DNA of 64,000 nt from Candidatus Berkelbacteria bacterium. Its GTDB lineage: Bacteria; Patescibacteriota; UBA1384; CAILIB01. Where the stretch lies: the NCBI GenBank assembly GCA_043751595.1, contig JAYUZR010000020.1, positions 336 to 64,335 of the forward strand. Direction: 5' to 3'. How positions within the stretch are numbered: the stretch's first letter is position 1; each line of letters starts with the position of its first letter. The notes beneath the pieces are model-generated. The model saw only the letters and a list, made by a program, of their open reading frames with translations. It made no database searches and was not told the origin of the DNA. Below are positions 36,252 to 64,000 of the stretch, in pieces. The translations under genes were made by a program, and so were the position numbers.

Positions 36252-36254
36252 TCG

Positions 36255-36782: not shown

Positions 36783-36813
36783 ACCAGACTAGCACCTTGT
36801 AAGCACCCTCACC

Positions 36814-40041: not shown

Positions 40042-40061
40042 ACGTGTATGCTAGCAGGCGG

Positions 40062-40886: not shown

Positions 40887-40935
40887 ACCACCCCACTAGG
40901 CGACAAGCCTTAGCGGCCGGTGCTACACTAAGTAT

Positions 40936-41517
40936 ATGTTTGGGCAATTTCAAATGAACTACACCATCCGCAGACTTATGCTGTCGGATGCCCTTATTTT
41001 TACCGGAATCGGCCTGGTAGTACCCATTCTCTCCATCTTTGTAAAGGATAATTTGAGCGGCGGAAGTATTGCTGCAGCAGGAATTGCCACCTTTATCTTT
41101 TTGGCGACCAAATCGATGGTCCAGATTCCCTTTTCCAATTTTACCGATGGCAACCCTGGGATACGGATGAAGTTTCTTATCTTTGGCACTTTTTTGATGT
41201 CCGGTGCCGCCCTGCTTTTTGTTCCCGCCACCACCGTAGCCACTATTTACCTTGCCCAGCTCCTGCGCGGGATTGGCGCCGGCCTCGCCTACCCGTGCTG
41301 GCAAGAATTGTGGACTTCTCACCTCGATAAACACCACGAAGGATTCGAGTGGAGCCTCTACAATGGCGCTATTTCTGTAGGTATGGCCACCTCGGCCTTA
41401 GTTGGAGGCACACTTGCTGAACTTATTGGCTTTGGTTGGACCTTTAGCTTGATGTCACTTCTTATTTTTATTGCTGGATTAAGCCTGGTGCAGCTGTACC
41501 ACTCACACCACAAATAA
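40936..41517 (+). CDS. Half-size MFS-type transporter (6 TM only)
   Basis: 193 aa and 6 TM. The GNPGIRMK loop resembles MFS motif A. No second 6-TM half adjacent. Confidence 0.5.
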   Translation: MFGQFQMNYTIRRLMLSDALIFTGIGLVVPILSIFVKDNLSGGSIAAAGIATFIFLATKSMVQIPFSNFTDGNPGIRMKFLIFGTFLMSGAALLFVPATTVATIYLAQLLRGIGAGLAYPCWQELWTSHLDKHHEGFEWSLYNGAISVGMATSALVGGTLAELIGFGWTFSLMSLLIFIAGLSLVQLYHSHHK

Positions 41518-41584
41518 GGGTGGCCAACCTAGATTGAGACTGCTAAGGTGACATGGTTACATCCTACTCGCCACTAGCCTGTCG

Positions 41585-46531: not shown

Positions 46532-48113
46532 TTCATCCACACGCCCAGATAAGTTATCTAACGCCGCCCTCTTCTTCTTAGTATTGGCGCCGCTTGTGGT
46601 GGTTAATTATGGTTTGTACGTTTTCAATCCTGAAAATATCAGCAGCCCTATCGTGTACGGCTTCCAGGTTCTGGCCGATTTCTTCTCGATTCTTACCGTA
46701 TCTGGGCTGTGGCTTACTATTTTGGTCGATCTTCTTACTCCGGCGCACCAGTTTACCGATCGCTCCACTCGCCGCCGCTGGCTTTTGGCTAACACGCCAA
46801 CTGCCGATATTTTTATTCCTACCGCCGGCGAGCCACCAGCCTTAGTTGCCAAAACGATTGCCGCTGCTGTGGCCATTAGCTATCCCCACAAAACCATTGT
46901 TTTGGATGATGGTCGATCAGACGCTATTAAAAAACTAGCTGCACAGTACGGCGCCGAATACGTCCGCCGCGATCACAACCGCAACGCCAAATCTGGCAAC
47001 ATTAATAACGGACTCGCCAAAAGCCAAGCCGAGTTCTTTGCCGTTTTGGATGCCGATTTTATTGCCGAGCCAAGCTTCTTAGAAGAGCTTCTAAGCTATA
47101 TGCAAGATAAAACGATTGCTTTTGTGCAATCTCCCCAGGCTTATACTAATTTGCAGCATTTTATCGCTAAGGGCACGGCGGCGGCTCAAGATATCTTCTA
47201 TAAATACGTGCTCCCTTCACGTAACTCCAGTGAATCTGCCTTTTGCGTAGGAACTAACGTAGTATTCCGACGTAAAGCGGTGGATGAAATTGGTGGCATT
47301 TTTGAGCTTGATCACTCCGAAGATATTTGGACGTCGTTAGTGCTTCACGAAAAAGGTTGGCGCTCTTTGTTTGTAAACAAGGTGCTAGCCCGCGGCCTGG
47401 CGCCAGATAACATGATCTCGTACTTTAAGCAGCAAAAGCGTTGGGCACAGGGTGGATTCTCAATTTTCTTTAAAAAGAATCCCTTGTTTATTGCCGGCCT
47501 TAGCTTTGATCAGCGCATGCAGTACCTGTTTACTTCCATGTTCTACTTTGTAGGCTTCTCGATTCTCACTTACCTCTTACTGCCGATTATTTACTTGATG
47601 ACAGGAGCGAGCCCGATTCATGCTCAAAGCTCTATTCAATGGGTGTGGCATTATCTTCCCTTCTTTGTGCTGTTCTACAGCATCCCTATTTTGCTGAATG
47701 GAAAGATTTCGGTGCCACTGGTAAGCACTGCGCTCGCCACCTTTGCACCGTTTATCCAAGCCTTTTTCAGTACCATTTTTGGGCAGCGCTACACCTGGGT
47801 AACCACCGCCTCTAATAAGTTCACCATTAAAGATCAGGTTAGCTTGTACCTGTGGCCGCATCTGATGCTCATCTCACTTTCGGTTTCTAGCGTTTTGGTA
47901 GCCTGGGTAGTGGTTCGCGATCCTACTAATACGGCAATCAATAGTTTTTGGGCCTTGGTAAATGCCTATCTCCTTGGTGTCTTTGTTCGTCGCAGCTTTG
48001 TGCCAGAAACTGAAGAAGAAGAGCCAGTACTCGTTATTACACCAAAACGCACAACCAAAAAGAGCACTCCTTCGCCTCAGGAAGAGCAGCCCCTGGATCA
48101 TCACCTAATCTGA
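46524..48113 (+). CDS. Processive GT2 beta-glycan synthase (cellulose/curdlan-synthase-like)
   Basis: D, DxD (LDADF), QSPQ and QQKRW (the QxxRW motif) plus flanking TM helices. Confidence 0.8.
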   Translation: MIDSSTRPDKLSNAALFFLVLAPLVVVNYGLYVFNPENISSPIVYGFQVLADFFSILTVSGLWLTILVDLLTPAHQFTDRSTRRRWLLANTPTADIFIPTAGEPPALVAKTIAAAVAISYPHKTIVLDDGRSDAIKKLAAQYGAEYVRRDHNRNAKSGNINNGLAKSQAEFFAVLDADFIAEPSFLEELLSYMQDKTIAFVQSPQAYTNLQHFIAKGTAAAQDIFYKYVLPSRNSSESAFCVGTNVVFRRKAVDEIGGIFELDHSEDIWTSLVLHEKGWRSLFVNKVLARGLAPDNMISYFKQQKRWAQGGFSIFFKKNPLFIAGLSFDQRMQYLFTSMFYFVGFSILTYLLLPIIYLMTGASPIHAQSSIQWVWHYLPFFVLFYSIPILLNGKISVPLVSTALATFAPFIQAFFSTIFGQRYTWVTTASNKFTIKDQVSLYLWPHLMLISLSVSSVLVAWVVVRDPTNTAINSFWALVNAYLLGVFVRRSFVPETEEEEPVLVITPKRTTKKSTPSPQEEQPLDHHLI

Positions 48114-48117
48114 TCAC

Positions 48118-48921
48118 ATGAAATCTACCACCGCCCAATCCGCCATCCTCACCTACGCTATTAACATTAGCGTCATCGCCCTGGTCTGCCTGGCCACCCT
48201 TGGCGTAACCGCCCTCGCCCTGGCCAATAAAGTAAGTGGCAACAAAAGAACGTCTACAGGAGCTGTTCTTACCGTGCAAAAGAAGGAGTTTAAGATTGTA
48301 AGCGCAACTTCTGGAACGGTGAGCAAGGTAGTGGCCAAGTCTGGAACCTTTGTAAAAAAGGGAGATCTTTTGGCCGAAACCGTGAATGAGATTCGCGATC
48401 GCCAGATTACTGTTCTTGAGAGCTTTGGCAATGCCAATGCCTCGGCCCAGACCCAGCTCGTACAGCTACAGATTGAGAAGGAAAAAGAAAAGATTTACGC
48501 CCCAACCACTGGCGTACTGGCCAACATTGATCAAGAAGGCGAGTACATCTGGCCACAGCAACAGGTAGGGCTTATCTATGCCGCCGAAGGAGTAGTCCTT
48601 ACCGCTAGCATTACGGCAGATGATTTTAAACTACTCCAGCAGCACACCGGGCCATTAAACCTTACCCAGTCCCGGCTTGAGCGCGATTACCAGGTAAACT
48701 TTGTCGGCAGTCGCACCGCCCTTACTAATGCCGAGTACCAAGAAAGTAAGATTGGGGCTGAGTTTTCTTTTGTAGATCCAGCCGACGCCGTTAATATGCT
48801 ACAAAACGAAAAACTTAAGCTCGATCTTACCCAGCTACACGACGATAGCCAGAACCGCCCATTCCAGGTAGTGCTTGATTGGTACGATAGTTTACTTACC
48901 AAGCTTGGGGCGGACCAGTAG
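48118..48921 (+). CDS. HlyD-like periplasmic adaptor (biotin-lipoyl-like barrel) protein
   Basis: N-terminal TM, KSGTFVKKGDLLAE lipoyl-like motif and a coiled-coil-like middle region. Confidence 0.5.
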   Translation: MKSTTAQSAILTYAINISVIALVCLATLGVTALALANKVSGNKRTSTGAVLTVQKKEFKIVSATSGTVSKVVAKSGTFVKKGDLLAETVNEIRDRQITVLESFGNANASAQTQLVQLQIEKEKEKIYAPTTGVLANIDQEGEYIWPQQQVGLIYAAEGVVLTASITADDFKLLQQHTGPLNLTQSRLERDYQVNFVGSRTALTNAEYQESKIGAEFSFVDPADAVNMLQNEKLKLDLTQLHDDSQNRPFQVVLDWYDSLLTKLGADQ

Positions 48922-48996
48922 CAGTTTGCAGAGTTTCTTTCTGCTGGAGCCTAGTTTTTTACAAGTCGCTTTAAGGCTGTTGTATCGGTAAATGAT

Positions 48997-49017
48997 ATAT
49001 ATCACTATGTGATATAT
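48997..49017. promoter_or_regulatory. Candidate PadR operator: 9-bp inverted repeat ATATATCAC-TAT-GTGATATAT overlapping the padR start codon
   Basis: Perfect inverted repeat read directly. ATG at 49016. Confidence 0.45.
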
Positions 49018-49300
49018 GAATCAGTTTATCTCACCCTCATTCCTTGTTCTTTCCGCCTTAGTCGACGGCGATAAGCATGGCTACGCCATCATGCAGTGGG
49101 TCGCTGCTAAAACCGAGGACAGCATTCACCTCGGCCCTGCCAGTCTCTACACCACTATCCGCAAACTTGAGCATTCAGGACTCATCTGCGAAGTCCCTGA
49201 TTCTGACCCGAAGCGCCGAACCTACCACTGCACCGATCTTGGCCAAAGCACGCTTGAGCAAGAGATGAAAACTGCCTTACTTCTTTTTAAGGCATCATGA
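49016..49300 (+). CDS. PadR family transcriptional regulator
   Basis: GYAIMQ...LYTTIRKLEHSGLI...RRTYHCTDLG winged-helix motifs. Confidence 0.75.
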   Translation: MNQFISPSFLVLSALVDGDKHGYAIMQWVAAKTEDSIHLGPASLYTTIRKLEHSGLICEVPDSDPKRRTYHCTDLGQSTLEQEMKTALLLFKAS

Positions 49301-51003
49301 AATCAACTGATCTTACCCAGCAAAAAGAGCGCTCATTAAAAACACTTAGTTTTTTGGTCGGCCTCTACCCCCTCGCTTTTCAGGAACGACACGGGGAAGA
49401 AATGAAAGAGCACTACCACCAGACTATTTCTCAGGCGGCCAAGCACGGCGATAGCCTTATTCTTAGCGAACACTTCTTGGGCCTGCTCCTAGAACTTCCC
49501 GCCAGCCTTAGTACTGAGTGGTGGCATCACCTAGTATATAAAACCACTAGTACGCAAGAACGAGTCGCCATCAGTATCGAGTACAGCAAAAAGCCGAGCC
49601 TTGTCTGGGCAATTCTTGCCTGCATCTACTTTTATATCGGTCCGCAACTTTCTTCATTCACCTACTTTTTAGCCTTTCCTGGAGTGGATAGCGCTTCTAC
49701 CTTAGTATTTTGGCTACCGATTGTTATTTGGTGGATATCGCTCGGAGTGGCAACCTTCCGGTTTACCAAAAGGCTTTTCATTGGCTTTTTGGCACTCATT
49801 CCTCTTCCACTTATTCTTCTGGGGTATAGCACCCTCTTCCCGGTTGGAATCTATGGGTTTTTGGATGATAGCTTCTTCGCCCTGGCGTTTATCATTCAAT
49901 ACTTTTCCGTTTTCTTCATTTTTAAACACCCGGAACGGTTTAAGCGTAAAGACCTAAGTGCAGTAAGTGCGAAAGACAGTGAAAGCTACACTACCTTTAC
50001 AAAAACCCGAAGAAACCGCCGACTGATTACCTTTGGAGTTGTATTTGGCTTGATACTATTTGCCAATGGGATCGCCTATGGCGTAGATCAGGCCGTAGAG
50101 GTCACTCCAATCGAGCCACTGCTTATGTACGGTGCTGGGCAGTCTAGGATGTACTTAATGACTTCCATTGAGGATATTGCACCTAAGGATCGTGGTGAAA
50201 AGATTACTGACTACATCAATAGTCCTGCCGCTCTCCCAGTTCCGCAAGATGTACAGAAAGAAGTTAGCACTCGGTATGTCTCATCTAAAAAGGCACTGGA
50301 GATTCTAGATAGCGTCGCCCTGCGCTCATGGGACTTTGACCCTACAATCTCAATGGAACGCCCAAATGACTTTGCCGCTACTCTCTCAATGCAAGTTGTC
50401 TCATTGCATGGATTAGCCACCAATAACGCAGAAGATATTCACCTAGTCTTTTCTTGTCTTCAAAAGTACCTTTCTGCCCAGGGCAAGCTTGAGTTCGATT
50501 ACTTTTCTGGGACTAAACTCCTAGCCCGGCAGCTTGAGCAGTACCAGCTTATTTCAGCAAGTTTTACCCAAGAAGAACGCCAAGAAATAGTGGCGATTCT
50601 CACCAAGTTGCCCGATCTTCACCGAGCCTACTCCGCCGCCATTGCCCACGAATATCAGGTGCAAACTACGTGGGATTCTACTCTCGACTTTTACAAAACC
50701 CTGCGCTACATGCCGTATGTATTTATGCCAAATACCACTCATGCACGAGCGGCAAAGTTTTTTAAAGCAGCACAAGAGCGAATGCTAGCAGCGTGCACAC
50801 CAGAAGATGCGGTGGCACAGTTATCGATTCAAGATGGAAGTGGCTTCATGGAGTATAAGGTCTCAACCATTTTGACTCCAAATTCAATTGGAAACTGGAT
50901 GACAAGTGACCGAGTTCCCCCTTCGGCTGATACCTACCGGATTAACGGCAAGCGCAACTTATGTAGGGCGGAGGCAAAGTTAAACGAGGTACTTAAGAGT
51001 TAA
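49297..51003 (+). CDS. PadR-associated multi-TM membrane protein (hypothetical)
   Basis: 568 aa, 4-nt overlap with padR. Central hydrophobic block. Confidence 0.55.
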   Translation: MKSTDLTQQKERSLKTLSFLVGLYPLAFQERHGEEMKEHYHQTISQAAKHGDSLILSEHFLGLLLELPASLSTEWWHHLVYKTTSTQERVAISIEYSKKPSLVWAILACIYFYIGPQLSSFTYFLAFPGVDSASTLVFWLPIVIWWISLGVATFRFTKRLFIGFLALIPLPLILLGYSTLFPVGIYGFLDDSFFALAFIIQYFSVFFIFKHPERFKRKDLSAVSAKDSESYTTFTKTRRNRRLITFGVVFGLILFANGIAYGVDQAVEVTPIEPLLMYGAGQSRMYLMTSIEDIAPKDRGEKITDYINSPAALPVPQDVQKEVSTRYVSSKKALEILDSVALRSWDFDPTISMERPNDFAATLSMQVVSLHGLATNNAEDIHLVFSCLQKYLSAQGKLEFDYFSGTKLLARQLEQYQLISASFTQEERQEIVAILTKLPDLHRAYSAAIAHEYQVQTTWDSTLDFYKTLRYMPYVFMPNTTHARAAKFFKAAQERMLAACTPEDAVAQLSIQDGSGFMEYKVSTILTPNSIGNWMTSDRVPPSADTYRINGKRNLCRAEAKLNEVLKS

Positions 51004-51991
51004 GCAGCCTTCTCAGTGCCTCAAGCCGTTGCTCATAATACCCCCTAAAAACTCCCTCTTCGCGGCGTAATAACTCAGCGCCAGTACCCAACCGCTCGCG
51101 CTCAAGGTTGCCGAGCGACCAAACAAGATCGGCAATTCTGGAGCCTAGATCGTGAACAGTGATCCTCGCTTGCAAATAGGGATCTGCATGACGCTCCTCA
51201 TACGCCGCGAGAAAGCCCTCTTTAAACTCGGAACTAACATGATTAACCGTAAAGAGAAACGATAACTCAGCCGCAGGGTCACCATACTCCGACTCACTCC
51301 AATCGATGAAGGTAATACCCTGGTCGTGCCACAGCACGTTCCCGGGATTGGGGTCGCCGTGTAGGAGTGCAAAGGAAGAGCCTGCAAAGGCTCTAGCATT
51401 CTGCTGAATATGCTCTTCATACCTAGTAATAGCACGATTCAACAACTGAGCCGCCTCAGAGTAATGCTCCAGATTAACCTTACCTAGAGGAGTTATCACC
51501 CAGGTTTGGTGCGCTGCCTTAGCCGCATCTAAGTAGGTTCCTTCTTGGTGCGGAGTACCGGGAGACGGAGAAAAGGTAGGGCTACGTTGAGCGTGAATAT
51601 CGGCCAGCACTCCAGCTAAGGCCTGTACATGCTCCTTAGGCATGGCATCGTATGAGCGGTGCTCACCTGGGATAAACTCCATCAACAAAAAGGAACCTGG
51701 AAGAAAGTCAGGATTACCGAGATGGTACACTCTGGGAGCCAGTACACCATCTAGAACCTTAAGCCTTGTATGCTCATGCACGATCACATCCACCCCATCC
51801 TCTTGAGGGGTTGGATAAAACCGCAGTACGTGCGAAGGGCGCTCATCACCTTTGAAGTGGACTGAGTAGTTTACATTGTGATGCCCACCACTTAGCCGAT
51901 TAAGTTGGAACGGCGCATGGGTATCGCGTCCGAAAACGGAAGGATGAAGTCCAGAAAGATGATCAGAGAGCTGAGTGAGGAGTTCGGACAT
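50993..51991 (-). CDS. Aminoglycoside-phosphotransferase (APH)/protein-kinase-like phosphotransferase
   Basis: LLHGDPNPGNVLW (the HGDxxxxN motif) and IDWSESEYGD. Start moved to MSELLTQL. Confidence 0.65.
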   Translation of the reverse strand: MSELLTQLSDHLSGLHPSVFGRDTHAPFQLNRLSGGHHNVNYSVHFKGDERPSHVLRFYPTPQEDGVDVIVHEHTRLKVLDGVLAPRVYHLGNPDFLPGSFLLMEFIPGEHRSYDAMPKEHVQALAGVLADIHAQRSPTFSPSPGTPHQEGTYLDAAKAAHQTWVITPLGKVNLEHYSEAAQLLNRAITRYEEHIQQNARAFAGSSFALLHGDPNPGNVLWHDQGITFIDWSESEYGDPAAELSFLFTVNHVSSEFKEGFLAAYEERHADPYLQARITVHDLGSRIADLVWSLGNLERERLGTGAELLRREEGVFRGYYEQRLEALRRLLNS

Positions 51992-52127
51992 ACTGACAGG
52001 ATAGCAAATACTAGAGACGACTTCACTAGATGCAACCCAATAAAACCTGTAATACTTGCACCATGCACACACCCTCTTACGAAATTGAGGCGAATTACGT
52101 GGCACCAAACTAATAAGTAGTATCGAA

Positions 52128-52703
52128 ATGGAAGAAGCACCAAACAAACTTGGAGAAGTCTTATTTGAAAATCGCACCATCTCGAGAAAGAGCAACGAAC
52201 TCCTACTTCAATACATCGCAATCACCGCATTTAGCGGACTCTTTGGCTTAGTATTCTCAGCGATAGTTGGCAGTAATTACTTGATTACAGGCCTCATTAC
52301 TATTTCGCCAATACTAGCGCTCGCACTGTATCAAAAACTCAGTGGAGGTTTTCGTACTTTCATTCTCTACGAGAAGGCCATTATTGACCTGCCCTCCGGC
52401 ACCATGACCACCGTTGATCGCATCACTGAGGTTCAGGTTTCTGTAGTTGCTGGTAGTAACTACAAAGTCCATATCATTACCGATACCGGTCGTGCTTCCT
52501 ATCCCTTGTATTGGGCGGGTGTTGATCCATTACAATCTGATGCCCTACAACAAAACCCTGGCTTAAAAAAGTTTGAAGTAGCACTAGAAAAACTTGGGTT
52601 TACCAAAGAGCCCTTTTATAGTTCGAGCGAAGCCGCACTAAGTCGGGTAACCCTTTTCCTCCTTAATCGTAAGGTTGTATATCGGTATAGACGGACCAAA
52701 TAA
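52128..52703 (+). CDS. Hypothetical membrane protein
   Basis: ORF with two TM. No recognised motif. Confidence 0.45.
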   Translation: MEEAPNKLGEVLFENRTISRKSNELLLQYIAITAFSGLFGLVFSAIVGSNYLITGLITISPILALALYQKLSGGFRTFILYEKAIIDLPSGTMTTVDRITEVQVSVVAGSNYKVHIITDTGRASYPLYWAGVDPLQSDALQQNPGLKKFEVALEKLGFTKEPFYSSSEAALSRVTLFLLNRKVVYRYRRTK

Positions 52704-52715
52704 GACCTCTCGAGA

Positions 52716-53366
52716 CTAGTTTTGTATCTCATCGTAGCTAGCCAGGTTTTCGCCGCTATACGCATCGATGTATACGCGCCAGTTAGTAAGCTTAATAAAC
52801 CACGCAAGGTGAGGAACCCCCTCGTAACGGATGAATACCTTTTGCGGATCATCCTTAACATCAGCTCGCACTACCGTATAGGTTTGAGGATGCTTATTAA
52901 TATCGTAGCGAACAAGCTCTTTTCCGATTAATGTATCGAGCGCCTGATCTGCCGAGATATCCGCCTTCGTTGGCGTTGTGCCCGGAATGCTTAGATAGCG
53001 CCCCGTCTGCACTATTGGCATCTTTGCCAGATCCTTTGGTACATCGACCATAAACTGGTTTTCAGCGATGGCAATACCTTGAAACCTAGCCTGATTAAAG
53101 GTTATCGAATATGCACTGCCGCCATCAAAAACCTTTACCAGCTCTACTTGATCAGCAGCTGGCACCGCACTTTCCTCGCCCTGAATAAGCGCCTGCTTTG
53201 CGGCAATAACCGATGATGCCTCATCGCGCTGCGCTACTTGCTTGGTCGCCACTGCAAGGGCAGCGGACTTCTGACTCTGCCGAGTAAGCGCGAACTGAAC
53301 AATAGTAAGTAGCCCCAAGATACTTACCACCACCAAAGAAACAAGCAAGCGATTAGTTGAGCGCAT
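52716..53366 (-). CDS. Hypothetical membrane-anchored protein
   Basis: N-terminal TM. No recognised motif. Confidence 0.45.
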   Translation of the reverse strand: MRSTNRLLVSLVVVSILGLLTIVQFALTRQSQKSAALAVATKQVAQRDEASSVIAAKQALIQGEESAVPAADQVELVKVFDGGSAYSITFNQARFQGIAIAENQFMVDVPKDLAKMPIVQTGRYLSIPGTTPTKADISADQALDTLIGKELVRYDINKHPQTYTVVRADVKDDPQKVFIRYEGVPHLAWFIKLTNWRVYIDAYSGENLASYDEIQN

Positions 53367-53441
53367 TATAATGCTTATAGTTGATGCGCTTATAGTACTA
53401 CTGCCATTTTGACAGGTAAATCAGACATCAGAAAAAGACAG

Positions 53442-54194
53442 TTAGAGTGATTGAGTAAGACTCAGTAGGACAGCATGAGTCGCTTGATTACCACCAATAA
53501 ACTCCCTGTCCTCGGCGCTAATATCTAGCGAACCATCAAAAGAAGTGAATACACCTCCCGCCTCCTCTAGAATAAGCTTACCGGCAAATTCAGGAAAAAC
53601 ATCTTTGGTGAGACTTAAAAATCCATCGTATCGGCCAGCTGCCGTCCAACAATAACTAACAGCAAAAGAGGCGGGGTTTCGGTAAGCAGAAAAGTGATGA
53701 ACAATATCCCAGCCCTTATCACCAGCAATAGTCCCCTCCTGTTTTTTACTGAGATTATAGACCACTTTTTTTGAGTCGCTAGAAACGTGAATAGGGCTGC
53801 CATTTAAGGTTGTACCCTTTCCTTTTTCGGCAACAAATAGTTCTTGCACCGAAGGATCGTACACAGCTGCGAAGACAGGCTCACCATTCTTTAAGTGACT
53901 AATAACACAAGCGTAGTGTGGGATGCCGGCAATAAAAGATGAGGCTCCGCTGATAGGATCGATCACCCAGACATCTTCATTGTCTTTGTACTGATCATGC
54001 TCTTCTTCGGCAAATATATGATGGTCTGGATATGTGCCGTGAATGAGCGTAACCAATTCTCGCTCAATACGCAGATCTTCTTCAGTTAAGTATTCTTTAA
54101 GAACGCCAATATCGGCTACGTTTCCGGTTTTGGTGAGTAGTCGTTTGCCCGAAACAACTAGCTGATCGATGAGGGTTTTGTAGAGGGAGTCCAT
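53442..54194 (-). CDS. Inositol monophosphatase family protein
   Basis: FAEEE and WVIDPISG motifs. Start at MDSLYK. Confidence 0.75.
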   Translation of the reverse strand: MDSLYKTLIDQLVVSGKRLLTKTGNVADIGVLKEYLTEEDLRIERELVTLIHGTYPDHHIFAEEEHDQYKDNEDVWVIDPISGASSFIAGIPHYACVISHLKNGEPVFAAVYDPSVQELFVAEKGKGTTLNGSPIHVSSDSKKVVYNLSKKQEGTIAGDKGWDIVHHFSAYRNPASFAVSYCWTAAGRYDGFLSLTKDVFPEFAGKLILEEAGGVFTSFDGSLDISAEDREFIGGNQATHAVLLSLTQSL

Positions 54195-54283
54195 GAGTAG
54201 ATGGTAGCAGAATAGGATCAACTCCACTTGACTAGTAGTGGCACAAAGTTAGTCTAGGCTCATGGAGATACATAACCAATCCC

Positions 54284-54997
54284 ATGAAATCACTCCATCC
54301 GCTCCAACTAGAAATCCTTCAGAAACTTCTTTTCTCCACTTCCCTTCGCTTTACCGACCTTAGACCAAACGAAGAAGTAGAGAATAATCAACTAGATTTT
54401 CATCTTCATAAGCTAATAGAGCTGAGCTACGTAGAAAAACGTGGCCTTGGATACGGCTTAACCTCACTTGGAAAGGAGTACGCCGGTAGAATCGATACAT
54501 CCAACCGACTTATCACTCGGCAAGGAAAGATTGGTGTCATTATTGGCTGTATTCGGGAGCGAAATGGCGAGAATGAGTTTCTTTTTTACACCCGCCTTAA
54601 GCAACCATTTTTTGAATGCCAGGGATTTCCTACCGGTAAGATCCAATTTGGCGAGAGCATTGTAGAAACGGCTGAACGAGAGTTATTTGAGGAAACCGGA
54701 TTAACCGGCAAGGCATCTGTTATTCAGCTTACCCATTATCGAGTACGAGCCATCGGTACCTCTGAGCTACTCGAGGATAAGTACTTATTCCTCTGCAAAG
54801 TGTCCGAGCCCGAAGGCGAGCTAATAGAGCGATCGGAAGAGGGCTTGTATTACTGGGTGAAGGAATCAGAAGTAGAAACAGTCATCACTAATCCCTTTGA
54901 TCCTATTGATGAATATCCGCGAGGAATTGAGCTACTTAAGAAAGATAATCCGATGGTTGAGATCATTGAGATTGAGCATGAGGGGAAGAAGTTTTAG
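54284..54997 (+). CDS. Winged-helix (MarR-like) plus NUDIX hydrolase fusion
   Basis: N-terminal wHTH, then Nudix box GKIQFGESIVETAERELFEETG. The stop codon abuts the 16-bp repeat. Confidence 0.7.
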   Translation: MKSLHPLQLEILQKLLFSTSLRFTDLRPNEEVENNQLDFHLHKLIELSYVEKRGLGYGLTSLGKEYAGRIDTSNRLITRQGKIGVIIGCIRERNGENEFLFYTRLKQPFFECQGFPTGKIQFGESIVETAERELFEETGLTGKASVIQLTHYRVRAIGTSELLEDKYLFLCKVSEPEGELIERSEEGLYYWVKESEVETVITNPFDPIDEYPRGIELLKKDNPMVEIIEIEHEGKKF

Positions 54998-55012
54998 GTC
55001 GGGGAAAGAGGA
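54997..55012. repeat. 16-bp direct repeat of the tRNA-Pro 3' end (GGTCGGGGAAAGAGGA); second copy at 55131-55146 inside the tRNA
   Basis: Exact 16-mer seen twice, 118 bp apart, in the same orientation. Confidence 0.7.
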
Positions 55013-55095
55013 AGTCGCGCTTCGCGCTCAACATTTCTCCATACTTCCTTAGTAGAAATGGTGAACCTTGGTTTCAAGCCTCGCTTCGCGACATA

Positions 55096-55127
55096 CCAAA
55101 AGAACCGCCGTTAGGCGGTTCTTTTGG
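55096..55127. terminator. Bidirectional terminator with perfect 14-bp stem
   Basis: CCAAAAGAACCGCC-GTTA-GGCGGTTCTTTTGG, immediately 3' of tRNA-Pro. Confidence 0.7.
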
Positions 55128-55129
55128 TA

Positions 55130-55206
55130 TGGTCGGGGAAAGAGGATTTGAACCTCCGATCTCCGGACCCCCAGCCCGGCGCACTAGGCCACTATGCTAT
55201 TCCCCG
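55130..55206 (-). tRNA. tRNA-Pro, anticodon GGG
   Basis: Reverse complement folds: acceptor CGGGGAA/TTCCCCG, D-stem GCAT/GTGC, anticodon stem CCGGG/TCCGG with loop CTGGGGG (G37), T-arm GGAGG-TTCAAAT-CCTCT, CCA encoded. Confidence 0.8.
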
Positions 55207-55536
55207 AGAGAGTGAGGCAGAAAAGTAAGCTAGCTTACTTTTTGCCGAGCGAATGAGGGGAGATATCGCGAAGCGATATTACCCGAATCTTAACTGGAGC
55301 ACTTACAAGGGGGATTCCGACATAAAGAAAGATGACCCCCTTTCCTCGTATGCGGCCTGGATCTAATTCCAGGTGGGTAACCTCACGCATAGCCCACGGG
55401 CTATGCAAATATTGGAATTCCCGTAGCGTTTGATGGTGACCACATACGAAGCGGTAGGTCGCTGGCATCCTACCTCCATCTGCCAGATATATCAAGCTTT
55501 CGCACACTGCTAAAAACTTGGTATACTCTCACGTAT

Positions 55537-57804
55537 ATGAGTCAGTCCCTCGTGCGGCTTTGCCGCATTGTGGCCCCAGAACGCCTATCAGATCGCTTCC
55601 TTACCTCGGGTGTTCTCACCCAGCAAGAGGGCGATTTTGATGCTCAAAAAAGCGTCATCCTCTGCTACGTTCTCGAGATCACACGTCCCTGGTTCCCCTC
55701 CTCCACTGTGTTTGCAGCGGTGCGTGATGCACTTGCTGAAACCCTGCCATCGCTCACGCCTGGCGAAACCCTCATTGATCAGATCGAAGAACTTCTTCGC
55801 CTGGTTAACCGTCGCCTGGCCGATATCTCTGATCAAGGCGAAACCGACTGGATCGGCAACCTAAACGGTATGATTGTCGCGATTGGCGGCAACGAACTTC
55901 ACTTCTCTCAAGCCGGCAGTATTCCGGCTTATCTCTTGCAAAACAACAGAATCCGTCAGATTACCGACGATCAGCCGCAGCAACAAGATCCTAATCCCCT
56001 CCGCACCTTTGCTAACCTTTCTTCTGGCCAACTCCAAGAAGATGACCGGATCCTCTTTGGTACCCACGAACTCTACCGCGAGCTTTCGCTCGATGCTCTT
56101 CGCCGGATCGTCGGCAAAAGCTCTCCGTATCAGGCGAGCCAGAGCATTCTTCGAGAGCTTAAGCGAGCTAAAAATCCAGGCGTACTAAGTACCATTGTTT
56201 GGTTTGGCGCAACACCAGGAGCTACGGAACCTGATTCTGTTTCCCTAGAAGAAGCCCTGCGCACTCCAATGCAAAAGGTAGTGCACACCGTTACGCCAAT
56301 TGCTCACAAAACGATTCAGCACGGAAAAAGAGCAACTGGAGCCCTAAAAAAGGCAGCTGAAGTTGGCGCCCAGTATGTACAGGAGAAGGCAATTCCTGCC
56401 ACTGGCCGCATCATTAAAGCTGGCGAGAATCAGGCAGAACAGGTCTTCCAAAAGATTGATACTAAGTTTCATACTACCTCCCCTGCCCTTACCGATATTC
56501 CGGTAGAGGACCCTCTGGCCGATGGCACGATTATTATCCGCCTCTATCCTCAGGTAAAAGTAAGGACCAAAACATCTCCGCTAGTTGCGGCTCAGCGCGC
56601 TTTCTTTATTAGCCTCCACAAGCTGGCGCAAGCCTACCGTTGGGTGCAAGCAACGCAACTACGCAGAAGAGTTGGCCTGGCTGGTATTATTGTAGTGTGC
56701 GCCGGCGTTGGCACGCTCGCCATTTATGCCCGCAAGCAGCCGGTTGCTCTTACCCCTACTCAGAGCCAAAATACTACCGTTATTACTCGCCTCCGCGAAA
56801 TTGAGGCTGCGGTAAAGACCGAGACCAATCAAACCACCTTGGCCCAGCTTACCACCGAGGCAAATACCCAGTACGATGCTCTGCAAAGCCCCGGCGAAGG
56901 CCAAAAGCGCGAGGCAGACCGCCTCTGGATAAGTATTACCGACCAACTGGATACCATTACCAAAACGGTTCGCTTTGTTGATTCCACCGAAAGTTACACC
57001 CTACCCGCGGCTGGAAAACAGGTAATTGCCAGCCTGCCCTTTATGTACGCCACCCCAAGCGGCAACCTTACTAGCCTGCTTCGTACCGGCAAGGGGAATG
57101 CTTCCGCCACCCAACGCACGCTTCCTATTACCGGCGACGAAGTACCAGTTGCCCTTACCCGAAGTCTTGAGGCCGATACCGCGGGTTACATTTTTACCAA
57201 CCAGCGCAGCATGTATCGCATCACTCAAGAAGATGCCGAGACTACCCTTCGTAAAGTGGAGCTTGATGGCGGCGAAAAGTTCTCCAGCGGCGATATGATC
57301 GGAACCTACCACGGCAACCTCTATATTGTAGATAGTGTAAACGGGCTCCTCTGGCGCTATGCCACCACCGGTACCGCCTACGGCAAGGGCTCCAGCGTGA
57401 TTGATAAAACCAAGTACGATCTTAAGGGAGCTACTTCCTTTGCAATTGATGGCGCGATCTACCTGCTTAAAAAGGATGGGACGGTCCAGAAGTTTGTCAC
57501 CGGAAAACAGGATACTAATTTTGCCCTTACCGGCATTCCGGAAGCTTCGCCAAAGGTGGTGCAGCCGCTCCAGATTCTTACAAATGAAAATACCGATAAT
57601 CTCTATTTGCTGGATGGCGGCATTACCAGTAGCGCTCGCCCGACTGCCCGTATTTTAGAGTTTAGTAAGAGCGGAAGTTTTATTCGCCAGTTTGCCTTCC
57701 CTGCAAGTGTAACGGCGGTTAAATCGGTTGATATTAGCGAGCAAGAGCGCATGATCTGGGCGTTGAGTGGCGATAAGGTGACGGCATTTAGCCTTCCACA
57801 ATAG
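55537..57804 (+). CDS. Membrane protein with N-terminal PP2C/SpoIIE-like (probably inactive) domain, a TM helix, and a C-terminal beta-propeller-like domain
   Basis: IVAIGGNELHFSQAGSIPAYLLQNNRIRQITDD and DDRILFGTHEL align with PP2C motifs, but GDSR reads GGNE and SDGL reads GTHE. TM VGLAGIIVVCAGVGTLAIYA. Repeats with the pattern NLY(I/L)(V/L)D...G. Confidence 0.6.
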   Translation: MSQSLVRLCRIVAPERLSDRFLTSGVLTQQEGDFDAQKSVILCYVLEITRPWFPSSTVFAAVRDALAETLPSLTPGETLIDQIEELLRLVNRRLADISDQGETDWIGNLNGMIVAIGGNELHFSQAGSIPAYLLQNNRIRQITDDQPQQQDPNPLRTFANLSSGQLQEDDRILFGTHELYRELSLDALRRIVGKSSPYQASQSILRELKRAKNPGVLSTIVWFGATPGATEPDSVSLEEALRTPMQKVVHTVTPIAHKTIQHGKRATGALKKAAEVGAQYVQEKAIPATGRIIKAGENQAEQVFQKIDTKFHTTSPALTDIPVEDPLADGTIIIRLYPQVKVRTKTSPLVAAQRAFFISLHKLAQAYRWVQATQLRRRVGLAGIIVVCAGVGTLAIYARKQPVALTPTQSQNTTVITRLREIEAAVKTETNQTTLAQLTTEANTQYDALQSPGEGQKREADRLWISITDQLDTITKTVRFVDSTESYTLPAAGKQVIASLPFMYATPSGNLTSLLRTGKGNASATQRTLPITGDEVPVALTRSLEADTAGYIFTNQRSMYRITQEDAETTLRKVELDGGEKFSSGDMIGTYHGNLYIVDSVNGLLWRYATTGTAYGKGSSVIDKTKYDLKGATSFAIDGAIYLLKKDGTVQKFVTGKQDTNFALTGIPEASPKVVQPLQILTNENTDNLYLLDGGITSSARPTARILEFSKSGSFIRQFAFPASVTAVKSVDISEQERMIWALSGDKVTAFSLPQ

Positions 57805-57814
57805 GTTACGGATT

Positions 57815-57852
57815 AAAAAAGCCGCAGTCCCCGGAGGGTCTGCGGCTTTTTC
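57815..57852. terminator. Bidirectional terminator
   Basis: AAAAAAGCCGCAG...CTGCGGCTTTTTC between convergent genes. Confidence 0.7.
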
Positions 57853-57869
57853 TTTGCGATATTCTGTTT

Positions 57870-59165
57870 TTAGAACGGCGGAGGCGTGGGACTGGGCGCC
57901 GGCGTTGCCAGCGGGTCCCGCGCCTTCACTTCCACCGTGAGGGTGGCGGAAATGAGGTCGCGATTTTCCGTTCCCTCGGCCATCAGGAGCTTGCCGAAGA
58001 CAAGATTATCCAGGCGGCGTAGTGCATCCTGGTGAAAATCGGTCGGTAGCTCGAAGTCGATCGACTCCGTTTTACCGTCCATTCCGTCAAACAAGTAGGT
58101 CAGCTTGGCTTTTATGTCCCACGACGCTGGCAAAGCCGAGCCGAGCCGATTTGCGACCGGAATCAGCAACCCGTAATAGGTCCCGGCGCCCTGAGCGCCC
58201 TGCCCGTTGTCGCGACAAACGAAGTGCGTGATCGTCTCCTGGGGTTTCCCAGGCATCGTGATCTTTACTTCGAGCGTCCCGACTGCCGGCGCCCCGGCTT
58301 TGATCAGAGACCCGAACTGGCCGTCGAAGGCCAGCGTGTGCGTGGGGGCACCCATCGCACGAGTGACGACGCTCCCATCGAGCAGGCGGAAGTCTGATGT
58401 ACCAATCGCAACGGGCAAGCGACGCGGACCGAGGTCGTCGATCGCGTGCCCAGTGGCAATCCAGCCGCCTTTCTGAGGCGAGTAATCAGTGAGGGTTGCC
58501 GAGCCGTAGAGCTCGACTTCCGGACCATACACCGCGAAGAACACGTACTTGCGCCCGGGGGCGAATTCGGTGTCTCTCACGGCACGGCTGGAGCTCACTT
58601 GTCCGCTAATGGGGGTAATCCCCGTCTTGGAGAAGTGAGTGAGATTGATAGACGAAGGCGCTCCTTTCAGCACCCAGGGAATGCGAGGCGGTGTTGTACC
58701 GCCACGACCACGACCGGAGTAGCTGAGCTGCAGCATCTGACTAAAGCTGCGAGCATAGACGCTTTTCGCGTCGTACCCGGACCAAACAGCCGCAACCAAC
58801 TTGCCGTCTGCGGTAACTACCGGACTACCGGAGTCACCTGGTCCAAGCTTCTGATCGGCCTGAGGCAGAATAGCAATCTGATCGTTGCCATTGTCCGCCC
58901 CCGCAGAAATCAATTGAACCTCACGCTTATAGACGCCGGTTCCGGCATCATTCGTGAGAACATAAAGCTTGGTACCTGACGCAAGCGCACGGGTGTCATC
59001 CCACCCAAGCATCCCCGTGTAAGGAAAGATACCGGAGATGAGCTCACCCTTAGGCGTGTCGTAGGTTGCGACGTTACCATCACTCCCTCCACCACAGCCC
59101 GAAATAAGCACTCCGCAAGCAAAAAACATGCAGAGCATCCAATAACGCAACATGTTAACCATCAT
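57870..59165 (-). CDS. GC-rich lipoprotein with SpoIVB/S55-like serine-peptidase motif
   Basis: SD AAGGA 6 nt upstream. Lipobox LISGC. Motif GPGDSGSPVVTADGKLVAAVWSG resembles SpoIVB GMSGSPIIQNGKVIGAV. No His lies N-terminal to it. Sampled GC is about 63-67%, against about 42-58% elsewhere. Confidence 0.6.
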   Translation of the reverse strand: MMVNMLRYWMLCMFFACGVLISGCGGGSDGNVATYDTPKGELISGIFPYTGMLGWDDTRALASGTKLYVLTNDAGTGVYKREVQLISAGADNGNDQIAILPQADQKLGPGDSGSPVVTADGKLVAAVWSGYDAKSVYARSFSQMLQLSYSGRGRGGTTPPRIPWVLKGAPSSINLTHFSKTGITPISGQVSSSRAVRDTEFAPGRKYVFFAVYGPEVELYGSATLTDYSPQKGGWIATGHAIDDLGPRRLPVAIGTSDFRLLDGSVVTRAMGAPTHTLAFDGQFGSLIKAGAPAVGTLEVKITMPGKPQETITHFVCRDNGQGAQGAGTYYGLLIPVANRLGSALPASWDIKAKLTYLFDGMDGKTESIDFELPTDFHQDALRRLDNLVFGKLLMAEGTENRDLISATLTVEVKARDPLATPAPSPTPPPF

Positions 59166-61079: not shown

Positions 61080-62272
61080 GAAATACGAATGCGAGCTAGT
61101 TGGCGCTTTCCTTTTTGAACCAATACACCATCTTCAACAACTGTCAGAGGATTTTCGAGGGTTTCACCATTAACACGCACCCCACCCTGCTCAATAACGC
61201 GGCGACCGTCGCCCTTACTGGTTACCCAGCCAAGTTGAACCAAGAGATCGAGGTAGGTTGTGTCTGGCGCAACGGCAATTTCTTCAATTGTTTCAGGGAG
61301 CTGATGCTGACTAAATTGTGCCTGCCAGTTTTCGGAAGATTCCTGCGCAACTTCGGCTCCGTGATAAAGTTCGACGATTGCCGAAGCAATCTCTAGCTTG
61401 ATATCGCGGGGGTTTTCTCCACTACTCATACGAGTGGCGAGTGTTTCTTGAGTAAAGGGCTGAGCAGAGCGCGGAATCAGCAGCAAGAGCTCGGCCAATA
61501 CATCGTCATGAGCAGACATGGCCTTACCAAACTTATCAGCCGGGGTATCGAGCAAATAAATGCCATTATCCAGGCTTTTACTCATTTTTCGACCATCAAG
61601 ACCGGCGACCAATACATTCATAATGAGCGATTGCTCAGGCTTTCCTGCTTGCTCCTGGAGCGCACGACCAGCTAGCAAATTAAAGCGTTGATCCGTCCCA
61701 CCCAATTCGACATCGGCATTGATAGCGACAGAATCGTAGCCCTGCATAATAGGGTACATAAGCTCGCGCATCGAGACGCGACTACCAGAATCGAGCCTTT
61801 TAGCGACCAGTTCTCGCTTAATAAAATCGTTGACCGAAAAAGCTCCAGCCAGGTAACTAACCTGCGCAAAACTAAGCGGTGCAAGCCACTCACTATTGCG
61901 ATGGAAAAAGATTTGATCAGCTTTTTCTTTGTTCAGAATCATCCAGAGCTGTTCTTCGTAGCGCTGCATATGGCTCTGCACCTCGGCCTCGGAGAGCATA
62001 GGGCGCTCTTTGTCTTTATCGGAGGTATCGCCAATTTGGCCAGTAAAATCGCCAATGATAAGATGGATCTCGTGTCCTAGCTCTTGAAAAGCGCGTAACC
62101 GCCAAATAGGCAACGTGTGCCCCAGGTGCATATTAGGACCGGTGGGATCGATGCCAAGCTTTACCTTTAGAGGGGTTTTTGAGCTACCAATACGAGTAAC
62201 CAGCATTTCTTTGCCGATTACTTCGCTAACACCGTAATGAAGAATGTCTTCTTCGGTAAATGTGAGGTTCAT
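61076..62272 (-). CDS. tyrS: Tyrosine--tRNA ligase
   Basis: HLGH (HIGH) and KMSKS motifs, C-terminal S4-like domain. 4-nt overlap with argS. Confidence 0.9.
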   Translation of the reverse strand: MNLTFTEEDILHYGVSEVIGKEMLVTRIGSSKTPLKVKLGIDPTGPNMHLGHTLPIWRLRAFQELGHEIHLIIGDFTGQIGDTSDKDKERPMLSEAEVQSHMQRYEEQLWMILNKEKADQIFFHRNSEWLAPLSFAQVSYLAGAFSVNDFIKRELVAKRLDSGSRVSMRELMYPIMQGYDSVAINADVELGGTDQRFNLLAGRALQEQAGKPEQSLIMNVLVAGLDGRKMSKSLDNGIYLLDTPADKFGKAMSAHDDVLAELLLLIPRSAQPFTQETLATRMSSGENPRDIKLEIASAIVELYHGAEVAQESSENWQAQFSQHQLPETIEEIAVAPDTTYLDLLVQLGWVTSKGDGRRVIEQGGVRVNGETLENPLTVVEDGVLVQKGKRQLARIRIS

Positions 62273-62417
62273 ACTCTGGCAGCGTAGCTGCTTTTCTGGT
62301 AGGGTTCAACCTATGGTGCGGCCCGAGCGTAAGAAGAAACCCCTATTTAAACTACCTGGCCGCGGTGCTGGGCGTGTTATGTTAGCTAAAAAGAAGGCAA
62401 CATCCGCCAAGGTAGGT

Positions 62418-64000
62418 ATGGCACTTCCCGCTCCCAAGACTTCTTTCTTTAGTAAGTTCAAAAAAAAGAAACTTTCTCCTAAAGGTAATCGTCCACTTCC
62501 GGCAGGTAAAATACTCAAGCCAAAGCGCCCGTTATGGCGTCGCATTCTCCTTGGCTTTGGTATTTTCTTTGCTCTCCTCATTCTTGGCGGAGCTCTTGCC
62601 TTTGGTTACTACGCGCCGCAGCTGCCAAATCCTCGTAAAATTACCGAGCGCACCGTCGATCAATCTACCCAGATTTACGATCGTAACGGAACTAAGCTCT
62701 ACGACTTCCACGGAGATGAAAATCGCACGATTACTACCTATGCAAAAATTAGTCCATTTATTACTAAGGCAGTAGTCGCCACCGAAGACGCAGATTTTTA
62801 TAACCACCACGGCTTTAGCCCAAAGGGTATTTTACGCTCAGTACTTGCCCGCGTAGTGCCAGGGTTTAATCGTGCAGAAGGTGGCGGATCTACCCTTACT
62901 CAGCAATACATTAAGAACGCCCTTCTTACCGACGATCATAGCCTGGATCGTAAGTTGCGTGAGCTTATTTTGGCGATTGAGATTGAGCTTAACTACCCTA
63001 AAAACGATATTCTTACCGGCTACCTCAACGAGATTAGTTACGGTGGCAATATTTACGGTGTAGAAACCGCTTCAGAAACCTTTTTCAATAAGCACGCGAG
63101 CGATGTAACCCTTAGTGAGGCTGCCGTCTTAGCTGCTATTCCTCAGGCTCCAAGTTACTACTCTCCGTACGGAAGTAATCTCGACGATCTTTTTGATCGA
63201 AAAAACTATGTGCTTAGCCGAATGGTAACCACCGGCGCCATTACTCAAGCCGAAGCCGACGAAGCCAAAAAAGCCACTCCCAACAAAGAAAGTCCTGCCT
63301 TTTCTGCTAGTTCAAATCTTACCGCTCCTCATTTTGTGTTTTATGTTCGCCAAAAACTAATCGAGCAACTTGGCGGAGACCCGGTTGATGCAGAAAAACG
63401 CCTCGATACCGAAGGGTTCACCGTTATTACCTCGCTCGATCTGCCCACCCAGCGCATGGCTGAAAAGATTTTGGCCGATATGGGTCCCGGTACCATCGCT
63501 AAATACAATGGAACCAATGCCTCACTTACCGCCATCGATCCTAAAACTGGAGAAGTCTTGGCGATGGTTGGAAGTATCGACTACGAAAAGAGTAAATCTG
63601 GTAACAATAATTTCGCCAACGCCCCGCTACAGCCTGGTTCTTCTATTAAGCCATTGGTATATGCCAGTGCGTTTAGCCCGACAGCTCAAACTAAGATGAA
63701 TCCCGGTAGTACCACCTTTGATGTGCAAACCGATTTTGGTGGAGGCTATAAACCAAACGATTACGACGGCAAGTTCCGTGGGCCCATTAGCAACCGCTCT
63801 GCGCTAGCCGGATCGTTAAACATTCCTACCCTCAAAAACCTGGCCCTAGGAGGAATCGATAACTTCTTAAGCATTGCCCGCGGCCTAGGTATTACCACCT
63901 TTACCGGTACTGCTAACGATTACGGCCTTTCTATCGGTCTTGGTGCTGGAGAAGTGCGTCAGGTAGAGCTTGCTGGAGCCTATACCGCCGTTGCTAATGG
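62418..64000 (+). CDS. Penicillin-binding protein 1A (GT51 transglycosylase plus transpeptidase), 3'-partial at window end
   Basis: SD AAGGTAGGT before the ATG at 62418 (alternative ATG at 62379, in frame). GT51 motifs EDADFYNHHG, GGSTLTQQ, RKLRE. Transpeptidase SSIKP (the SxxK motif). ORF runs off the window. Confidence 0.85.
   Translation, partial: MALPAPKTSFFSKFKKKKLSPKGNRPLPAGKILKPKRPLWRRILLGFGIFFALLILGGALAFGYYAPQLPNPRKITERTVDQSTQIYDRNGTKLYDFHGDENRTITTYAKISPFITKAVVATEDADFYNHHGFSPKGILRSVLARVVPGFNRAEGGGSTLTQQYIKNALLTDDHSLDRKLRELILAIEIELNYPKNDILTGYLNEISYGGNIYGVETASETFFNKHASDVTLSEAAVLAAIPQAPSYYSPYGSNLDDLFDRKNYVLSRMVTTGAITQAEADEAKKATPNKESPAFSASSNLTAPHFVFYVRQKLIEQLGGDPVDAEKRLDTEGFTVITSLDLPTQRMAEKILADMGPGTIAKYNGTNASLTAIDPKTGEVLAMVGSIDYEKSKSGNNNFANAPLQPGSSIKPLVYASAFSPTAQTKMNPGSTTFDVQTDFGGGYKPNDYDGKFRGPISNRSALAGSLNIPTLKNLALGGIDNFLSIARGLGITTFTGTANDYGLSIGLGAGEVRQVELAGAYTAVAN

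Follow-up and report, generated by a model that had tools for sequence, protein, structure and literature searches.

What does a bacterial membrane protein do with a phosphatase-like domain that appears to have lost its catalytic residues? The question is raised by one open reading frame (ORF) in a 64,000-nucleotide stretch of a Candidatus Berkelbacteria bacterium genome (contig JAYUZR010000020.1, positions 336 to 64,335; the window hereafter). The ORF is complete, from ATG to TAG, at 55537..57804 on the forward strand and encodes 755 amino acids plus the stop; the span given for it in a preliminary description, made from the sequence alone, matches the ORF listing exactly. Its product belongs to a large, unnamed family of conserved single-pass membrane proteins found throughout Patescibacteria (the CPR, or candidate phyla radiation). 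From sequence and model comparisons, we give slightly better than even odds (about 0.55) to the reading that it is a transmembrane pseudophosphatase receptor or scaffold resembling the mycobacterial phosphatase PstP and acting without catalysis.

An AlphaFold2 (AF2) model built on 45 homologues has a mean predicted local distance difference test score (pLDDT) of 85.5, with 476 residues at 90 or above. Five parts can be distinguished:

55537..56244 (+), aa 1-236: predicted cytoplasmic PP2C-fold domain, catalytically degenerate (Foldseek, hhalign and a domain-only profile; pLDDT mostly >90)
56245..56661 (+), aa 237-375: predicted cytoplasmic juxtamembrane linker of long helices (DSSP, pLDDT)
56668..56730 (+), about aa 378-398: single transmembrane helix, N-terminus inside and C-terminus outside (Kyte-Doolittle peak of 2.2, the only peak)
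56737..56964 (+), aa 401-476: predicted extracytoplasmic three-helix segment (DSSP helices at 407-428, 432-447 and 454-474; pLDDT >90)
56965..57801 (+), aa 477-755: predicted extracytoplasmic six-bladed beta-propeller (24 strands in the model, Foldseek)

The N-terminal domain has the PP2C fold, a beta-sandwich flanked by helices. In a Foldseek comparison of the model with the PDB, the best matches were the bacterial PP2Cs PstP, PppA, tPphA and Stp1 (E=1e-10 to 1e-8; TM-scores of 0.57-0.71, normalised to the matched PDB structure), and SpoIIE and the RsbU domain of Rv1364c ranked lower. PstP (1txo) was the best structural match to this domain, with E=1e-10 and a target-normalised TM-score of 0.65-0.67 over ~250 columns at 16% identity. 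Profile comparison leads to the same family. A profile of the domain from 181 homologues was aligned by hhalign to a PP2C alignment of PstP, tPphA, Stp1 and PrpC with 98.7% probability (E=2e-15, 215 columns); the PstP and tPphA inputs are identical to PDB entries, the Stp1 input was taken from the PDB alignment, and the PrpC input scores E=3e-52 against Stp1. When a diverse profile restricted to the domain (A2) was run against the PDB by hmmsearch, all 14 of the 14 best matches were PP2Cs, including Stp1 (1.5e-4), PstP (5.7e-4) and tPphA (1.4e-3). In the reverse direction, a hidden Markov model made from four PP2C sequences was run on the window together with 31 related loci; of their 2,678 ORF fragments it picked out only the target family, matching 22 ORFs at E=2e-5 to 9e-3. 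The three approaches agree with the preliminary description in its claim of a PP2C-like N-terminus; the outcome that it had allowed for, a domain that is not PP2C-like at all, is not what they find.

The PP2C signal emerged only through the domain-only profile, hhalign or fold comparison. A phmmer search with the protein and an hmmsearch with a full-length profile of 45 sequences returned only noise from the PDB sequences, with E of at least 0.06. Direct scans of the protein gave no Pfam or NCBIfam match even at E<=10, and no Pfam or NCBIfam model was found for the family; PF00481 is touched weakly by 7/45 members (best E=0.012), which falls short of membership in the curated model. The homology of the N-domain to PP2C is real and lies beyond the reach of curated models.

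The catalytic site is best described by reference to PstP. We take D118 and the flap residue S160 of PstP to be ligands of the third metal, and H43 to be the general-acid His. More generally, D25, D118, D191, S160 and the His after DGMGG presumably have the catalytic-site roles known from PP2C structures (Pullen et al. 2004). Asp38 and Asp229 are ligands of the catalytic Mn2+ ions, and Arg20 is the phosphate-binding residue; the mutants D38G and D229G each lose >90% of activity and R20G loses ~60% (PMC3052367). Mapped through the hhalign alignment, with columns counted over the 181 homologues, these residues have the following counterparts:

PstP R20: T28; column variable (E/R/K/Q/T/S)
PstP D25: D33; column a gap in 176/181
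PstP D38: E47, codon 55675..55677 (+); Glu in 178/181 (98%)
PstP G39: I48; column I or V
PstP H43: W52; Trp in 144/181
PstP D118 (of GDSR): S128; column R/K/N/Q/S
PstP D191 (of SDGL): H177; column S/Q/P/H
PstP D229: P214; column K/P/R/L

Three short segments, the first two placed by hhalign and hmmsearch and the third by hhalign, correspond to PP2C motifs:

55915..55926 (+): G127-S-I-P130, the GDSR equivalent; Gly invariant, Asp position variable
56062..56073 (+): T176-H-E-L179, the SDGL equivalent; position of the Asp ligand variable
55993..56010 (+): N153-P-L-R-T-F158 (family consensus HPLKTF), the equivalent of the PstP flap HPQRSL

Across the family, neither the metal ligands (D25, D38, D191, D229 and D118) nor the Arg (R20) nor the His (H43) of PP2C enzymes are kept. 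E47 is the only conserved acidic counterpart at any PP2C metal-ligand position, the remaining columns being variable and for the most part non-acidic, and the four core ligand columns contain no Asp in 173/181 members, one in 8/181, and never more. The preliminary description had considered that all metal ligands might prove to be present on careful alignment, which is not the case, D38 alone having such an acidic counterpart. It had also read GGNE as GDSR and GTHE as SDGL. The first assignment is wrong, since GGNE (117-120) aligns to A107-G-N-R110 of PstP, a turn between two strands; the second (175-178) is off by one residue from the true equivalent, THEL (176-179). Its broader claim of degenerate catalytic motifs survives under the corrected register. 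Judged by the alignment, the whole family is without a canonical PP2C metal centre, and the protein falls outside the PP2C enzyme family when that family is defined by models and ligands. The N-domain is probably a pseudophosphatase, in which catalysis would be absent.

Loss of the ligands has not been accompanied by a loss of conservation. Mean column information is 1.95 bits in the PP2C-like domain, 1.78 in the propeller, 1.6 in the transmembrane helix and 1.2-1.3 in the two helical linkers (1.21 in the cytoplasmic juxtamembrane one), and the PP2C-like domain is the best-conserved region of the protein despite the missing ligands. Retained fold, lost ligands and purifying selection, the combination that marks a PP2C-fold pseudophosphatase, are thus all found. 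Near-invariant residues include E47, E84, N91, W105, G107, G127, P154, T157, F158, G164 and D170; conserved acidic and polar positions are E47 (98%), E84 (99%), E102, D/E104, D/E144 (88%), E/D178 (65%) and H153 (76%), and the flap columns are strongly conserved (P in 172/181, T in 167/181, F in 173/181). At the former active-site face and flap lie E47, P51-W52, G127, the HPLKTF segment and N176/E178. Such a pattern would be expected if the old active site had become a binding surface. The non-catalytic reading draws on this contrast: the PstP ligand columns are lost family-wide, yet the domain is the most conserved of the protein.

The same residues could be read differently, as the site of a protein that is still an enzyme. 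In this rather unlikely alternative, a remodelled site made up of E47, D/E144, E/D178, H153 and T157, perhaps with a single metal and regulated by the propeller, would dephosphorylate proteins or a small phospho-metabolite, making the protein an active analogue of PstP. E47 falls exactly at the position of the bridging Asp, acidic residues occupy the column that follows the lost D191 in 65% of members and D/E144 in 88%, and the flap HPxKTF, site of the third-metal ligand S160 in PstP, has been kept, with T157 in 92%. The strong conservation of the domain and the name 'PrpC' given to one member by the Joint Genome Institute (JGI) also fit an enzyme. An enzyme would nonetheless have to work without R20, D25, D118, D191, D229 and the general-acid His, with Lys, Arg and Pro among the variable replacements at ligand columns, and in PstP the loss of D229 alone removes >90% of activity (PMC3052367). 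That 0/181 members keep more than one core Asp, and that neither Pfam nor NCBIfam recognises the protein at E<=10, also speak against an enzyme.

The topology of the protein is shared by most of the family. Exactly one hydrophobic segment, at mid-length, is present in 161/181 homologues, and at ~378-398 in the window's protein it confirms the single transmembrane helix of the preliminary description. Among the homologues, the 15 residues on the N side of this segment carry a net charge of +3.6 versus +1.5 on the C side, and a signal-peptide-like N-terminus was seen in 0/181. The single mid-length helix, the charge bias of its flanks and the absence of a signal-peptide-like N-terminus place the N-domain in the cytoplasm and the beta-domain outside it. 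The AF2 model, hydropathy and charge bias together give the layout of PstP, a cytoplasmic PP2C domain followed by a single transmembrane helix and a C-terminal extracytoplasmic domain. The juxtamembrane linker is variable in length and partly of low confidence (pLDDT <50 at aa 311-350), and weak apolipoprotein-like matches to it were found in 6/45 members.

The extracytoplasmic part ends in a propeller of 24 beta-strands between aa 477 and 752 of the AF2 model. Its best propeller match by TM-score in Foldseek is the extracellular sensor of PknD (1rwl; 0.71 over 290 columns at ~15% identity), followed by six-bladed strictosidine synthases at 0.58; this match and the position C-terminal to the transmembrane helix identify a six-bladed extracytoplasmic propeller. 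The resemblance to Ser/Thr-kinase sensor modules that had been noticed from the sequence is thereby substantiated. The ~360 aa of propeller-like repeats proposed at the same time were right as to fold and too long: the propeller occupies ~280 aa (477-755), and the ~75 residues that follow the transmembrane helix form three helices outside it. Similarly, the repeated NLY(I/L)(V/L)D blades are represented by two strict motifs (594 and 688) and two looser ones (640 and 739) and no more. Weak matches to unrelated propeller families in Pfam were obtained among the 45 members (Beta-prop_CGLA in 9/45, Beta-prop_ACSF4 in 7/45 and DUF5128 in 5/45); the NHL repeat signature (PF01436) was matched by only 1/45 members, at E=0.011.

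A conserved propeller on the outside of the cell (1.78 bits per column) raises the possibility of a structural, adhesive or anchoring protein, whose propeller would bind the cell's own wall or S-layer or the surface of a host. The cytoplasmic domain would then serve just for anchoring or as a platform for assembly, and no signal would cross the membrane. The linker and transmembrane helix are poorly conserved, as expected of a passive tether, and CPR bacteria live as epibionts dependent on surface contacts. We regard a purely structural role as unlikely. A mere anchor needs neither the highest conservation of the protein on its cytoplasmic side nor near-invariant polar residues on a former active-site face; moreover, host-contact proteins are usually fast-varying and accessory, whereas the gene considered here is core, present once and set among housekeeping genes.

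That the ORF is genuine, far beyond chance, follows from its thousands of representative homologues. When 1.84 billion cluster representatives (clusters at 50% identity) were searched exhaustively with phmmer, 4,065 matched at E<=1e-3, of which 1,674 at E<=1e-10; among the matches listed, nearly all are 700-800 aa long and matched over the whole length. A word-indexed search gave 60 full-length relatives, and full-length homologues share 25-44% identity with the protein. The database copy (P0001) starts 5 residues downstream of the window's ATG; homologues, like the protein itself, open with MSxxL...CRIVAPEKL, so the ATG at 55537 is favoured over the database start as the likely true one. Source annotations label family members 'hypothetical' in nearly all cases. 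A search with the N-domain profile for other architectures or active intermediates in a database of 5.8 billion proteins yielded only 11 fragments, on short contigs, and literature searches found no published description of the family. Transposon sequencing (Tn-seq) data for an orthologue in Southlakia epibionticum were sought in Wang et al. 2023, in whose supplement text no PP2C or phosphatase-2C annotation was found. Two candidates in that species were considered by position: SEML1_0028, a hypothetical gene adjoining ArgRS, measures only 168 bp, and what lies upstream of TyrRS-PBP is a HAD hydrolase gene; no orthologue was identified there.

To see where the family occurs, two of its motifs were scanned against one genome of each GTDB species. 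All 24 loci recovered belong to Patescibacteria (Saccharibacteria, Berkelbacteria, Nealsonbacteria and unclassified groups). Two database entries carry other labels: P0198, a 237-aa fragment 52% identical to the N-domain, was deposited as Methanothrix sp., and P0009, a full-length family member, as Verrucomicrobiae bacterium. Both are probably CPR contigs mis-binned into other metagenome-assembled genomes. One study reports that Patescibacteria parasitise methanogenic archaea (PMC10936435), which makes the Methanothrix label of P0198 notable.

The neighbourhood was compared by clustering the ORFs of 32 loci (the window and 31 related ones), each of which has one copy of the gene. The conserved order is target (+), ArgRS (-), TyrRS (-), class A penicillin-binding protein (PBP) (+), RadA (-), RecJ (-) and FtsQ (-), and it is kept in Saccharibacteria, Berkelbacteria and Nealsonbacteria. 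The gene is a core, vertically inherited CPR gene. In the window the last member of the order still covered is the PBP gene:

62244..64000 (+): class A PBP gene, 5' part, cut by the window end (clusters with Transgly+Transpeptidase+Big_7 proteins, 26/32 loci)

The PBP is found in 26/32 loci, the other six being short contigs whose ends lie no more than ~3 kb downstream of the target gene. In two loci that lack the aminoacyl-tRNA synthetase (aaRS) pair (L029 and L030), it follows the target directly on the same strand, at 39-44 bp. A role of the protein in wall synthesis or division is plausible, given its persistent position near the only class A PBP and FtsQ. An operon with the PBP was considered and rejected, since two convergent aaRS genes usually intervene and the whole block is housekeeping; as a pointer to any particular functional partner, the synteny is weak. 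Tight, operon-like linkage was seen for the family with one gene only, an LPG_synthase_TM gene located downstream on the same strand in six loci (L006, L007, L015, L016, L021 and L031). The gap is 6-23 bp in all but L016, where the two genes appear to overlap, and in five loci a gene for a 188-aa transmembrane or secreted protein without a Pfam match comes next.

Upstream, on the same strand, 12 loci carry genes for a treble-clef zinc-finger protein and an M50 peptidase of 207 aa, and before these come HolB, PSP1 and a TPR protein. The peptidase introduces another explanation for the protein. A single transmembrane helix between an extracytoplasmic sensor and a cytoplasmic effector is the typical layout of a substrate of regulated intramembrane proteolysis, a layout that the protein fits, and the Peptidase_M50 gene (HExxH), a site-2 protease, is immediately upstream on the same strand in 12/32 loci; it could cut the transmembrane helix and set the PP2C-like domain free in the cytoplasm, as happens in signalling of the anti-sigma-factor type. 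The two genes lie 100-400 bp apart and are not translationally coupled, the upstream neighbour differs in other loci, and the M50 gene is itself part of the housekeeping backbone; in the window it lies 16.6 kb away with unrelated accessory genes between. On this evidence such a substrate role is very improbable.

PstP-like phosphatases would be expected to accompany Hanks-type kinases, and this association was not found. No Hanks-type kinase was detected with a PknB kinase-domain bait among the six-frame ORFs of 559 kb (the window and the 31 loci, ~20 kb per genome); FHA proteins were not searched for. The statement of the preliminary description that no cognate kinase is nearby therefore extends, for Hanks-type kinases, to all 32 loci. 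An APH-family kinase-like gene 3.3 kb upstream in the window (50993-52195, -) was considered as a cognate kinase and set aside, being not of the Hanks type, on the opposite strand and absent from the 31 other loci.

Several of these observations weigh against a pseudophosphatase receptor or scaffold tied to the cell envelope. A remodelled site for a metal or a substrate might be built from the conserved acidic and polar residues. The genes around the target form a housekeeping backbone (HolB, PSP1, RadA, RecJ and the aaRS genes), so that its synteny with the PBP may be owed to a conservative genome and not to a common function, and two convergent aaRS genes normally separate the PBP from the target. 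The kinase survey spans ~20 kb per genome, and kinases elsewhere are possible.

In the window itself the gene is monocistronic, with a tRNA gene on the opposite strand upstream and a convergent gene downstream. The gap of 540 bp that separates the target from the NUDIX gene contains this tRNA-Pro (anticodon GGG; 55130-55206, -; 60.4 bits in Rfam, also found by ARAGORN) and a 90-aa ORF (55235-55507, -) that is probably spurious. One promoter-like site precedes the gene:

55499..55527 (+): TTCGCA-17-TATACT, TG-extended candidate promoter-like site (consensus scan only)

The scan found 5 such sites in the region versus 2.6 expected. In the site listed, the -10 element stops 9 nt short of the ATG, with no Shine-Dalgarno sequence in between; the mRNA may be leaderless or have a very short leader.

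A conserved CPR block at 35535-39013 encodes a TPR protein, HolB (DNA polymerase III delta'), a treble-clef zinc-finger protein and the small M50 peptidase of the HExxH family (38393-39013). The backbone that is contiguous in 12 other CPR genomes is here split by ~16.6 kb of accessory genes (38900-55500), encoding a peroxiredoxin, an HhH-GPD glycosylase, a truncated major facilitator superfamily (MFS) protein, a GH81 glucanase, two GT2 enzymes (one cellulose-synthase-like), an HlyD-like protein, two products without a Pfam match (655 and 568 aa), the APH-family kinase-like protein, a PepSY protein, an IMPase and a winged helix-turn-helix (wHTH)-NUDIX protein. From its gene content this stretch looks like a glucan or exopolysaccharide island. 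On the other side of the target, and in this genome only, a 431-aa lipoprotein-like ORF (57870-59165, -) with an N-terminal LISGC lipobox stands before ArgRS. It has a weak Trypsin_2 match (E=1.9e-4, below the gathering score), lies in the highest-GC stretch of the window (0.53-0.55 versus ~0.48) and may have been inserted in this lineage specifically. After the target, the convergent gap of 65 bp holds a sub-threshold Rfam match to the Salmonella small RNA STnc40 (57815-57895, -; 33.2 bits versus a gathering score of 45, E=0.009), which overlaps the 3' end of the neighbouring gene and is most likely chance or a terminator-like hairpin.

If the protein is a pseudophosphatase receptor or scaffold, its parts could work together as follows. 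The propeller would bind a ligand derived from the envelope or from a host. The flexible helical linker and the transmembrane helix would tether the PP2C-like domain to the helical stalk and propeller outside, and the former active-site face (E47, P51-W52, G127, the HPLKTF flap and N176/E178) would bind a cytoplasmic partner. Outside and inside would thus be linked by a transmembrane receptor or scaffold through binding rather than enzyme activity, possibly in the service of the cell-wall and division machinery encoded nearby, a connection to peptidoglycan suggested by gene position. A more ambitious version seems doubtful: the PP2C fold would have been turned into a non-catalytic output, the family would be a phylum-wide, kinase-independent counterpart of the PknB/PstP module of cell-wall control, and sensing of ligands from the wall or a host by the PknD-like propeller would control the single class A PBP and the divisome, possibly as a host-sensing device of epibiotic bacteria.

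CPR bacteria have tiny genomes with few recognisable signalling proteins, and their host sensing and envelope control are largely unknown. To recognise in this family a PstP-like pseudophosphatase joined to a PknD-like propeller provides a testable handle on a piece of CPR 'dark matter'. If the proposed reading is true, a bacterial, membrane-bound case would be added to the short list of PP2C-fold pseudoenzymes. If the site is instead remodelled and active, the catalytic range of the PPM family would be broader.

Several known systems can be compared with the protein. Bacterial membrane pseudokinases, single-pass or membrane-embedded, are known in EssB/YukC of type VII secretion and in the pseudokinase domain of mycobacterial MviN. 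They resemble the protein in concept, in that a dead Ser/Thr-signalling fold serves as a cytoplasmic scaffold together with an extracytoplasmic domain; they differ in having a kinase rather than a phosphatase fold, belong to other systems and share no homology with it. TAB1, a eukaryotic PP2C-fold pseudophosphatase, has lost its metal ligands and acts as a protein-binding adaptor. It is a precedent in concept for the action proposed here, binding through a PP2C fold without ligands rather than catalysis, although it is soluble, eukaryotic, unrelated in origin and tied to the regulation of kinase signalling (TAK1, p38), and it is absent among the best 50 Foldseek matches listed. The PknD sensor, a six-bladed NHL-type propeller, is like the propeller described here in that both form the extracytoplasmic C-terminus of a protein that crosses the membrane once and has at its N-terminus a cytoplasmic domain from Ser/Thr phospho-signalling. 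The cytoplasmic domain of PknD is an active kinase, whereas that of the protein is a degenerate phosphatase, and the NHL signature is not detectable in the latter.

In architecture the protein is closest to PstP. PstP is encoded near pbpA and rodA, and the gene described here likewise lies near a peptidoglycan synthase gene, in this case a class A PBP. PstP, PknA and PknB are encoded in one operon together with FHA proteins; unlike PstP, the protein has no Hanks kinase near its gene in the 559 kb examined, and its sequence identity to PstP is ~16%. PstP is an active Mn2+ enzyme that requires R20, D38 and D229, where the family has a variable residue, Glu and a variable residue, respectively, and the 191-aa extracellular domain of PstP is not known as a propeller. 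The pstP gene of Mycobacterium tuberculosis (Rv0018c) adjoins the Hanks kinase genes PknA and PknB, and its product consists of a cytoplasmic PP2C domain of ~237 aa, a juxtamembrane linker, a single transmembrane helix and an extracellular domain (PMC3052367). The domain order and topology of the CPR protein are identical. A topology like that of PstP, a sensor like that of PknD and a pseudoenzyme with the PP2C fold are all of kinds already known, and the protein that combines them is not mechanistically surprising.

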